A stretch of DNA of 64,000 nt from Polaribacter sp. GTDB lineage: Bacteria; Bacteroidota; Bacteroidia; Flavobacteriales; Flavobacteriaceae. The position numbers were made by a program, and so were the translations under genes. The DNA lies in assembly GCA_965656305.1 (NCBI GenBank), contig CBFHKA010000041.1, positions 41,340 to 105,339 of the forward strand, in the 5' to 3' direction. Each line of letters starts with the position of its first letter. The stretch's first letter is position 1. Shown here piece by piece: positions 7,878 through 10,282 of the stretch. The notes below the pieces were generated by a model that was not told the DNA's origin, ran no database searches, and saw only the letters and a list, made by a program, of their open reading frames with translations.

Positions 7878-8069
7878 ATGAATACTTTAAATATATTTTT
7901 ATTAGGAATGCCAAGTGGAGGATCTTGGATTATTATTGCAATTGCAATTTTATTATTGTTTGGTGGTAAGAAAATACCAGAATTAATGAAAGGTTTAGGT
8001 GGTGGTATAAAAGAGTTTAAAAAAGCATCTAAAGAAGAAAAAGAAAAAGAAGATAAAATAGAAGAATAG
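7878..8069 (+). CDS. tatA: Twin-arginine translocase TatA/TatE subunit
   Basis: [26 protein letters not shown]; TATCTTTG -7 promoter element at 7849-7856. Confidence 0.95.
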
Positions 8070-8086
8070 ATTTTTTTAATATCATA

Positions 8087-8121
8087 AAAAAGCCCTAATT
8101 ACATTGTAATTAGGGCTTTTT
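8087..8121. terminator. Bidirectional intrinsic terminator
   Basis: aaaaagccctaattaca-t-tgtaattagggcttttt perfect inverted repeat. Confidence 0.85.
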
Positions 8122-8279
8122 ATTTTTTTAAATCTATTAAAACTTAATAATTATTATAGATTTTAATTGTTTTGGGATAAATGGGAGTTTCTATTTACTT
8201 AAATATTTTTTAACTTTTAAGTTAATTTAAAGGTCTAAAAATGAAAATATATAAGTAGAGTTATTAGGTAGAAAATAAC

Positions 8280-8370
8280 AAAAAAAATAAAGCTCTATTT
8301 GAATAACAAATAGAGCTTCTTTGTTTAAATTAAAAATCCCCCAAAATTTAACTTAATTGCGACAAATATA
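8280..8370 (-). ncRNA. Candidate ~80-nt small RNA (own -7 promoter and own terminator, no ORF)
   Basis: Minus strand TATATTTG at 8363-8370, body containing TTTTGGGGGATTTTT, perfect 12-bp stem 8290-8318 followed by T8. Confidence 0.4.
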
Positions 8371-8447: not shown

Positions 8448-9326
8448 TTAGTCTAAAAAACTCATTAATGATTGTTTACTAAAACTTCTAGAAACAGGAA
8501 TATCAAAAGAAATTATATTAGATTTTAATAAATAACCTCTTGCATTCCCACTTATATCTGAAATATACTTTGTGTTTATAATATAAGATTTATGACACCT
8601 TATAACTTTAGAATTGACTTCTAATTCGCTTTCTATTTTAGCTAACGTAACTCTTAAAATTTTTTCTTTTAAAATGTTGTTTTCACTTTTAATAAAAAAA
8701 CTTGCATAATTTCCTTGAGATGTAATGTATACTAAGTTTTCAATATTAAAGCTTAAACTTTCTTTTTTGTTATCAGAATAAATAATAGTTTTAGATTTTA
8801 AGTTTTTAGATTTTTCTAATAATTTTTTCTTTTTATGATTTCTAATTTCTTGTACTTTTTTTATTCTTTTTCTTCTTAAATTTCTTTCATTCAAATACAC
8901 TAAAAAAAATACAGGTATTGCTCCAACAAGAAAAGTGTAAAATAAAAAAAGGACTAAACTTATTTGTTTTAAACCTCTATTACTTTTGTAATTACTAGCA
9001 CAATACCATAATACAGAACCTAAAAAAAAAATACCAAAAAAAATCAGTAATATATTTTTACCTACAGTCCATTTATCTTCATTAAAAAAATCAGGAAAGA
9101 CCAATGGAGGTATGTATAGTATTAATAAAGTCCCAAAAAAGGTAAATACACCTATAGCAGAGGTGTATTCTAATAAATAACTACCTAAAGATATTAAAGA
9201 AAAAGGCTTAAAAATATACAAGAAAACAAAAACAAAAACAGCAAGTGTTAAACTTGTTTTAAATTTAAATTTGATTGATGGGTTAAAGTAATAAGGAGTA
9301 TTAAGCCAGGAGGTTATTCTTTTCAT
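8448..9326 (-). CDS. Membrane-anchored LytTR DNA-binding domain regulator
   Basis: Four hydrophobic N-terminal segments; LVYITSQGNYA, IRCHKSYIIN, IPVSRSF LytTR motifs. Confidence 0.92.
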   Translation of the reverse strand: MKRITSWLNTPYYFNPSIKFKFKTSLTLAVFVFVFLYIFKPFSLISLGSYLLEYTSAIGVFTFFGTLLILYIPPLVFPDFFNEDKWTVGKNILLIFFGIFFLGSVLWYCASNYKSNRGLKQISLVLFLFYTFLVGAIPVFFLVYLNERNLRRKRIKKVQEIRNHKKKKLLEKSKNLKSKTIIYSDNKKESLSFNIENLVYITSQGNYASFFIKSENNILKEKILRVTLAKIESELEVNSKVIRCHKSYIINTKYISDISGNARGYLLKSNIISFDIPVSRSFSKQSLMSFLD

Positions 9327-9347: not shown

Positions 9348-10214
9348 TTACATTAAACTTTTTATATCTTCTTTTTTAAAGCTTCTAGAAACTGGAATTT
9401 GAATAGTAAGTATTTTTGATTCTAAATAATAACCTCTTGCATTACCAGAAACAGAATTCATAAACCTTGTATTTATTATAAATGATTTATGACAACGTTT
9501 AATAAAATCATAATCTGTAAGTTCTAAAGCAATTTTAGTTAATGTATTTCTGATGATTTTTTCTTTTATACCATTTTCAGTTTTAAAAAATAAACTTGCA
9601 TAATTGCCTTGAGATGTAATATATACCAAATTATCAATATTAAAAGTGATGAAATCTTTTTTATTATCACCAATGATTTTAATTTCTTTATTAAGTTTTA
9701 AAATATCAACAGAATCTTTAGATTCCATTATTTTTTTTGATGTATTTTCTCTATAAACTGTATATAGTCTTTCACTAATATAAGTAAAAAGTGTTATAGG
9801 CAAAATTGCAATAGTGAATGTGTAAAAAAAGAAGTCTTTTAATGATAATAAGCCTATTGTAGCTGTATTTTGAATAATGGTATTATAATACCAATTACTA
9901 AAAGTTATTGTAAGAGTTAATAAAAAAAGAAAAAGAATACTTTTACCAACAGTCCAATTATCATCATTAAAAAAAGACTTGAAAATATATGGGAAAAGAA
10001 TAAAAAATACTATTTGTACTATAAAAGTTACTAAACCAAAACCAGCAGTATATAAAAAAATATTGTTTTCTAAACTACCAATACCAAATGGTTGAAAAAG
10101 ATAAAGAAATGAGAAGATAAAAAAACCAATACCAAAACTTAATAAGAGGTTAAATTTTGGAGAATTTATAAAAAAATAAGGTTTTTGTACCCAGTTTATT
10201 ATAGTCTTAATCAT
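9348..10214 (-). CDS. Membrane-anchored LytTR DNA-binding domain regulator (paralog)
   Basis: Same architecture; LVYITSQGNYA, KRCHKSFIIN, IPVSRSF. Confidence 0.92.
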   Translation of the reverse strand: MIKTIINWVQKPYFFINSPKFNLLLSFGIGFFIFSFLYLFQPFGIGSLENNIFLYTAGFGLVTFIVQIVFFILFPYIFKSFFNDDNWTVGKSILFLFLLTLTITFSNWYYNTIIQNTATIGLLSLKDFFFYTFTIAILPITLFTYISERLYTVYRENTSKKIMESKDSVDILKLNKEIKIIGDNKKDFITFNIDNLVYITSQGNYASLFFKTENGIKEKIIRNTLTKIALELTDYDFIKRCHKSFIINTRFMNSVSGNARGYYLESKILTIQIPVSRSFKKEDIKSLM

Positions 10215-10231
10215 TTTTTATATGAAACGAT

Positions 10232-10257
10232 AAAACCCTAACAATTGTTAAGGTTTT
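10232..10257 (-). terminator. Probable terminator after the SPFH gene
   Basis: aaaaccctaacaattgttaaggtttt near-perfect inverted repeat. Confidence 0.6.
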
Positions 10258-10282
10258 AATAATTTAGCCTAAGATAATAAAA

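Follow-up and report, generated by a model that had tools for sequence, protein, structure and literature searches.

A probable LytTR-linked small RNA with a five-G loop behind membrane-anchored regulator genes in Polaribacter

In a Polaribacter genome (GenBank assembly GCA_965656305.1), a predicted non-coding RNA gene of roughly 79 nucleotides, with its own promoter and terminator, lies directly behind two membrane-anchored LytTR regulator genes, carries their likely docking sites, and displays a five-G (G5) loop complementary to a five-C (C5) box found just upstream of the start codons of about a dozen genes and conserved in orthologues of three of the four genes tested. We regard it as a probable LytTR-activated trans-acting small RNA (sRNA), which points to an undescribed sensor-to-small-RNA circuit in marine Flavobacteriia. 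The window analyzed, by which we mean the whole stretch of 64,000 nucleotides (contig CBFHKA010000041.1, positions 41,340 to 105,339 of the forward strand), had first been examined from its letters alone, and that sequence-only reading proposed a stand-alone sRNA of about 80 nt with an exposed G5 seed, possibly the output of the adjacent membrane LytTR sensors, while allowing that the hairpin could simply terminate the LytTR mRNA. What was observed there proved to be real, with every described feature in place on the minus strand. The interpretation is likewise supported, as comparative evidence backs its three elements, namely a stand-alone transcript, an exposed G5, and an output of the LytTR proteins.

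Read along the minus strand, the locus begins with the TAA stop codon of the proximal LytTR gene (8450–8448) and continues with a 16-nt direct repeat CTTCCATTTCATCCCA (box 1, 8443–8428), a second repeat CCTCCTTTTTATAACA (box 2, 8413–8398), a T8 run at the −33 position (8397–8390), a 19-nt spacer, a −7 box TATATTTG matching the Bacteroidota sigma-A consensus TAnnTTTG (8370–8363), the segment GCAATTAAGTTAAATTTTGGGGGATTTTTAATTTAAACAAA, the hairpin GAAGCTCTATTTG-TTATT-CAAATAGAGCTTT (8319–8289), and then A and T8 (8287–8280). Stem-loop 1 (8356–8325) shows UUGGGGGA in its loop, with TTTTGGGGGATTTTT around 8346–8332 and G5 itself at 8342–8338. Stem-loop 2 is the intrinsic terminator, for which a terminator scan counts 13 pairs with a loop of 5, where the sequence-only reading had counted a perfect 12 bp. 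The same scan lists five terminator-like sites in 3 kb, against 0.6 expected, one of which is the hairpin of tatA itself (8087–8121, plus strand), as had been noted. The 91-nt stretch folds at −23.5 kcal/mol, against −10.9 ± 2.5 for shuffled sequences (z = −5.0). The predicted RNA (8358–8280) has no coding potential; there is no ATG, no open reading frame of 30 aa or more, and the only start-like codon, TTG, is followed by four codons. Scanning Rfam at E ≤ 10 returned no match, the best overlapping hits being chance terminator look-alikes at E ≥ 0.25.

The two upstream genes encode LytTR-1 (8448–9326, minus strand; 292 aa) and LytTR-2 (9348–10214, minus strand; 288 aa), which are 42% identical and share one architecture, four hydrophobic segments within residues 20–147 followed by a C-terminal LytTR domain (Pfam PF04397; E = 2.8e-9 for LytTR-1 and E = 1.4e-7 at residues 188–282 for LytTR-2). 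Their best relatives in named genomes are all from Polaribacter, and cultured strains that carry the module include Polaribacter sp. Hel1_85 (locus L194) and P. aquimarinus (L190). An SPFH/Band 7 gene lies further upstream, and tatA (7878–8069, plus strand) and a DUF2807 gene are convergent downstream. How the LytTR genes are themselves transcribed is unclear, as a terminator-like hairpin AACCTTAACAATTGTTAGGGTT plus TTTTAT (10236–10262, minus strand) lies between SPFH and LytTR-2, only about 20 nt before the LytTR-2 ATG, and no TAnnTTTG box follows it.

Is the unit conserved, as an RNA gene should be? The spacer from the LytTR stop codon to the hairpin is 71–75% identical in three other species, one of which (genome G008) has a copy behind each of its two LytTR genes. 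A covariance search among relatives had been proposed in advance as a check, and a model built from the stretch between the −7 box and the T-tail (R1; 77.4 bits for the window copy) hits at least 125 of 267 genomes of the genus at E ≤ 1e-3, about 65 of them below 1e-6. Because R1 included the −7 box, its hits lean slightly towards copies that keep that box. In 33 aligned copies, 92.6% of cells are paired, against 34–57% when the partners are slid by 1–3 columns, and 19 of 27 pairs change on both sides, 11 of 13 in stem-loop 1 and 8 of 14 in the terminator; no shuffle out of 500 reaches the observed values. That alignment is fitted to the model, which favors the structure, but the raw sequences show the compensatory changes by eye, for example AATGGTAATTG...CAATTATCATT in place of AATTAAAAAT...ATTTTTAATT. 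Many G-U pairs fit only the LytTR strand, and G5 always lies in the loop, which always reads UUGGGGGA. The specific family is therefore genus-level: the four R1 hits in 200 other genera are ordinary terminators without G5, and the 11-mer TTGGGGGATTT, sought in 150 genera, falls mostly inside open reading frames, with one clear sRNA-like unit seen in genome G310.

Loss of the promoter in relatives had been named beforehand as grounds for abandoning the sRNA reading, and the promoter is in fact kept. In 33 of 34 copies, the T, A, T, T, T, and G of TAnnTTTG are invariant, whereas the two n positions and both flanks vary, and the distance from the box to the hairpin, counted to G5, ranges from 15 to 29 nt, as expected of a free 5′ leader. 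In Flavobacterium psychrophilum this box occupies −12 to −5 of mapped sigma-A promoters (PMC9723704), placing +1 near 8358, as the sequence-only reading proposed, with the 3′ end in the T-run; no transcript data were examined, and thus both ends, and even expression, are predictions. The window's −33 element is only a T-run. The element is strictly syntenic, lying between [SPFH, 0, 1 or 2 membrane LytTR genes] and convergent tatA-DUF2807. Four species (loci L040, L046, L048, and L051) have no LytTR gene yet keep the box and the RNA, and in L040 and L046 a terminator-like hairpin follows SPFH and precedes the box, such that there the RNA cannot be a 3′ UTR; L048 and L051 were not inspected for such a hairpin. 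One alternative is that the region is only the 3′ UTR and terminator of the LytTR mRNA and, in relatives, a bidirectional terminator shared with tatA, without a separate RNA that has a function of its own. In its favor, no terminator separates the LytTR-1 stop codon from stem-loop 2, and in relatives, which lack tatA's own hairpin, stem-loop 2 is the only hairpin between the convergent genes, so that it probably acts in both directions. However, a terminator explains neither an invariant TAnnTTTG at a fixed place nor a second covarying hairpin with an invariant G5 loop, nor the persistence of the unit behind another terminator, nor the phasing of the repeats described below, and we consider this alternative unlikely. 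LytTR mRNA probably does also end at stem-loop 2, a possibility that the sequence-only reading had raised and that is compatible with an independent sRNA.

The link to the LytTR proteins rests on the direct repeats. All 29 copies that directly follow a LytTR gene carry two copies of a 16-nt motif, CTTCCnnTTTAYmmCA or, with its variants, (C)TTCC(C/T)nTT(T)(A/G)(T/C)mmCA, starting a few bases after the stop codon, and all five copies that do not follow one lack it. In the window, box 1 (19.3 bits with a position weight matrix) starts 5 nt after the LytTR-1 stop codon and box 2 (17.3 bits) lies 30 bp after box 1 and 43 bp before the −7 box, ending 8 nt before the 19-nt spacer, a stretch filled by the T8 run that stands in for the −33 element. 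Across copies, the proximal repeat starts 44 (about 20 cases), 54 (2), or 64 (3) bp before the −7 box, and the repeat period is 30 bp in the window and most Polaribacter, or 19 bp in three species. These are steps of about one helical turn, which is what a protein bound to one DNA face and touching RNA polymerase would impose; an RNA element would not be expected to show it. Together the two boxes form the only paired site in the 2.9-Mb genome. We also considered, and dropped, a long-range 3′-UTR helix between box 1 (AUCCCAAAA) and the G5 loop, as only 5 bp can form, a change in G008 is not compensated, and both the 10-bp phasing and the conservation of the boxes in front of protein genes elsewhere point to a DNA-level role.

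The most telling support comes from distant relatives of the LytTR protein. Full-length homologues (28–43% identity) in Bacteroidales, Gracilimonas, Bernardetia, Saprospiraceae, and other Flavobacteriaceae have TTCCCnTTnATCnCA repeats directly after their stop codons, with the canonical 21-bp period in the Bacteroidales examples, followed by a TAnnTTTG box and then a protein-coding gene on the same strand. These envelope-related genes encode DUF2141-like secreted proteins, CPBP-type membrane proteases, an Ntn-hydrolase-like protein, and membrane acyltransferase-like proteins (loci L206, L209, L210, and L214–L219), and the arrangement seems general for this protein family. The box type therefore travels with the protein family, whatever lies downstream, and the regulated unit would be the one behind the gene. 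In an uncultured Tenacibaculum MAG (locus L204), about 120 nt after the membrane LytTR stop codon, the boxes and a terminator are present, but the short unit between them carries AUAUCCCCCGAUAU, a C5 in place of a G5. Could the sRNA be real and independently transcribed, yet the repeats not be LytTR operators for it? They could be RNA elements of the LytTR 3′ UTR, sites for another factor, or neutral passengers of the LytTR gene cassette, with a promoter that is constitutive or controlled otherwise. The LytTR-less species express, or at least keep, the sRNA without boxes, and thus the LytTR proteins cannot be essential for its expression; the boxes are physically linked to the 3′ end of the LytTR gene, so that co-occurrence alone could be hitch-hiking; and the 30- or 19-bp period departs from LytTR operators in the literature, in which repeats of about 9–11 bp are separated by 11–13 bp (a period of about 21–22 bp). 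Neither binding of the LytTR domain nor dependence of transcription on it was assayed. On the other hand, the 10-bp steps in both box-to-promoter distance and box-to-box period argue for a DNA-face constraint, the canonical period is found with distant family members, and a different LytTR subfamily has its own repeats in front of its own G5 sRNA, and we therefore think that this second alternative is improbable, although less so than a mere 3′ UTR.

The RNA is one of a family. TTGGGGGA occurs 39 times in the genome, against about 18 expected, and at least six further occurrences sit in a hairpin loop followed by a terminator in intergenic DNA (with C and a number denoting sequences of this genome, C30:101831–101926, C41:170700–170860, C29:48890–48990, C38:148480–148600, and C39:61390–61450 on the plus strand, and C31:89800–89900 on the minus strand). 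The genome has 14 LytTR genes, and two classical REC-LytTR response-regulator genes (stops at C30:101742 and C41:170648) are each followed on the same strand by a −7 box, a G5-loop hairpin, and a terminator. The C30 module also has direct repeats TTTATCG/TTCATCG with a 21-bp period, and its orthologues in five other species keep the arrangement, with (C)ATTCGTCGAA repeats. The C38 unit is divergent from a single-domain receiver gene. Rfam returned nothing for the paralogous modules at gathering scores; over both Rfam scans only chance terminator look-alikes and tRNAs came up. The module of LytTR gene, repeats, promoter, and G5-loop RNA has thus arisen or been kept with at least two unrelated LytTR architectures, and the window's type duplicates as a whole in genomes G008 and G107, while G281 instead has two sRNA copies behind one LytTR gene. 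Alignment to the variant modules of G008 and G107 shows that positions 8122–8279 (minus strand) of the window are a decayed third module, with a remnant of a LytTR C-terminus (…KKYLSK*), a box 1 copy ACTCCCATTTATCCCA (8188–8173; 19.5 bits, one of the few strong single sites in the genome), a mutated −7 box TAGATTTA, and the RNA body lost. The private terminator of tatA aligns with the stem-loop 1 region of intact variant modules, and it may derive from that hairpin. Directly after another REC-LytTR gene (C19:119725–119820, plus strand), about 13 tandem copies of the heptamer ACATCAA run up to the next gene.

What, then, might the G5 loop do? Among 2466 crude gene starts (longest ATG open reading frames of at least 70 aa), CCCCC occurs 8 and 11 times in the 10-nt bins −20 and −10, against 0–4 times in every other bin between −150 and +150 (about 1 per bin), an enrichment of about 10-fold; GGGGG shows no such peak. 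The roughly 14 genes with the box 2–20 nt upstream of the start codon (e.g. C16:14328+, C26:26496−, C41:14621−, C41:15728−, C9:33279+, and C12:41562+) include a single-domain receiver, an AraC regulator, a REC-LytTR regulator, a GAF histidine kinase, an HTH protein, an alpha/beta hydrolase, and small exported proteins. Of four genes tested in other species, the box is kept in 8 of 8 orthologues of the hydrolase at C16:14328 (UAAUCCCCCA in otherwise diverged leaders, and absent from paralogues), 5 of 7 close orthologues of the receiver (REC) protein at C26:26128, and 5 of 9 orthologues of the AraC regulator, but in only 1 of 21 of a small GTPase, which is likely not a real target. Paralogues of the C16 hydrolase in many Polaribacter (loci L150–L166) have a different conserved leader motif (TCAAAACTACATAAA...CACTACATTGT) in place of the C5 box, possibly an operator or RNA element of another system. 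There are no C-rich sites near the starts of tatA, DUF2807, SPFH, or the LytTR genes. C5 counts from loci retrieved from other genomes were biased by how the loci were chosen and are not used. AAUCCCCCAA is the exact complement of the invariant UUGGGGGAUU, and we therefore propose, tentatively, that the loop pairs with the leader and occludes or remodels the ribosome-loading region. The C5 link is correlative, pairing beyond about 9 bp is not evident, and a poly(C)-binding protein could explain the boxes equally well. It is also possible, although we think it unlikely, that the G5-loop RNAs bind a protein rather than a message, the partner being a poly(G)- or GGA-recognizing RNA-binding protein, or that they engage the ribosome's anti-Shine-Dalgarno CCUCC, with which GGGGG can pair with one G-U, such that the C5 boxes would be an unrelated signal. 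An invariant loop motif in many paralogues is also typical of protein-binding RNAs. Against this, no CsrA, Hfq, or ProQ homologue was found by tblastn in this genome (94% complete; CsrA was sought with E. coli and B. subtilis queries), each RNA has a single motif, in contrast to the multiple GGA loops of CsrB/RsmZ-type sponges, and the exact 10-nt complementarity between the loop and the UAAUCCCCCA box of the hydrolase orthologues would be a coincidence.

Taken together, our preferred explanation, which we hold to be more likely than not, is that 8358–8280 (minus strand) is a gene for a trans-acting sRNA of the Polaribacter G5-loop family, transcribed from its own sigma-A promoter with a weak −33 and a consensus −7 box. 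In this view, the membrane-anchored LytTR proteins encoded immediately upstream would bind the two phased repeats and activate that promoter, the RNA would fold into a hairpin that presents UUGGGGGAUU, its terminator would also stop LytTR read-through and, in relatives, tatA, and the loop would pair with (A)AUCCCCCA(A) boxes 2–20 nt upstream of the start codons of a small regulon, changing their translation or stability. The conservation, the structure, the promoter box, the box phasing, and the co-occurrence with the protein family come directly from our computations, whereas LytTR binding, activation rather than repression, and the C5 targets are inferences from them. Everything rests on comparative sequence analysis, without transcript, binding, or phenotype data. 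Our confidence differs accordingly by part: an independent sRNA is likely, control by the LytTR proteins through the boxes is somewhat more probable than not, and action on C5 boxes by base pairing is a tentative proposal.

The logic resembles that of agr P3 and RNAIII of Staphylococcus aureus (with the LytTR response regulator AgrA) and of VirR/VirS with VR-RNA of Clostridium perfringens, in which a LytTR-domain regulator binds a pair of direct repeats just upstream of a promoter next to its own genes and the product is a regulatory RNA. Here, however, the regulator is a one-component protein with four membrane segments and no receiver domain, the RNA is tiny, with one seed loop and no open reading frame, it lies downstream on the same strand rather than divergently, it belongs to a multi-copy family with a shared G-run seed, the 16-nt repeats are spaced differently, and the phylum is Bacteroidota, which lacks Hfq and Shine-Dalgarno-led initiation. 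LytTR Regulatory Systems (HdrRM, BrsRM) and the LRS-like operons of Bacteroides are also close (PMC6193735); the Bacteroides LytTR regulators have several transmembrane segments and direct repeats next to a TGTA-19-TATCTTTG promoter, but upstream of the operon, and LRS repeats give positive autoregulation. In our genome no box precedes the LytTR genes, so that such a loop is not evident, the regulators themselves are membrane proteins rather than soluble, no separate membrane inhibitor gene (DUF2154/NfeD) is seen beside them, the neighbors being SPFH and a second LytTR gene, and the output is an sRNA. Qrr1–5 of Vibrio (LuxO-dependent) and other multi-copy families likewise comprise paralogous short sRNAs that share an invariant seed and a terminator and lie beside signaling genes, but each G5-loop paralogue appears to have its own regulator (membrane LytTR, two REC-LytTR types, or others unknown) rather than one common activator, there is no Hfq, and the seed is a G-run in a hairpin loop. 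In the C-rich-loop sRNAs of Staphylococcus (RsaE and other Rsa RNAs, RNAIII), a short homopolymer-like loop motif pairs with G-rich Shine-Dalgarno sequences just upstream of start codons; here the polarity is mirrored, with a G-run in the sRNA and a C-run in the mRNA, and the proposed target is a dedicated C5 box present in only about 0.6% of genes. Rfp18 and the other Rfp sRNAs of F. psychrophilum (PMC9723704) are independently transcribed Flavobacteriaceae sRNAs with a TAnnTTTG promoter, strong structure, a stem-loop seed, and genus-level conservation; no sequence relation was detected, but only in that R1, built from the present sRNA, matched nothing real in the 200 other genera searched, Rfp18 itself was not compared, and no link of Rfp18 to a LytTR regulator or a G5 loop is reported. 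Literature searches for Flavobacterium or Polaribacter sRNAs linked to LytTR found nothing relevant, and no Polaribacter sRNA study was found.

A bolder possibility, which we think less likely than not but which the evidence allows, is that Polaribacter, and probably related Flavobacteriaceae, use a private post-transcriptional code, in which single-seed G5-loop sRNAs are each wired to a different sensory regulator (membrane one-component LytTR proteins, REC-LytTR response regulators, and others) and all converge on the same C5 box in the Shine-Dalgarno-less ribosome-loading region of a small regulon rich in signaling genes. For the membrane-anchored proteins, the target promoter region starts five bases after their own stop codon, and this may be because a membrane-tethered factor, inserted co-translationally, can reach only DNA next to its own gene.

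Regulatory RNAs of Bacteroidota are poorly known; only a handful have been characterized (GibS, MasB, DonS, RteR, FopS, and Rfp18), the phylum has no Hfq or ProQ, and translation starts without Shine-Dalgarno pairing. This locus offers a compact, testable circuit in an ecologically important genus of algal-bloom degraders, running from a membrane one-component sensor to a promoter with phased operators, to a 79-nt RNA with a single G5 seed, to a candidate conserved C5 box at start codons, and the comparative data supply ready-made mutational predictions in the 10-bp steps of box spacing and in G5/C5 compensatory changes. The circuit would show how a membrane-tethered transcription factor can act, namely on the promoter that abuts its own gene. 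Additionally, it suggests what LytTR systems of Bacteroidota control, and how mRNAs without Shine-Dalgarno sequences can be made sRNA-responsive.
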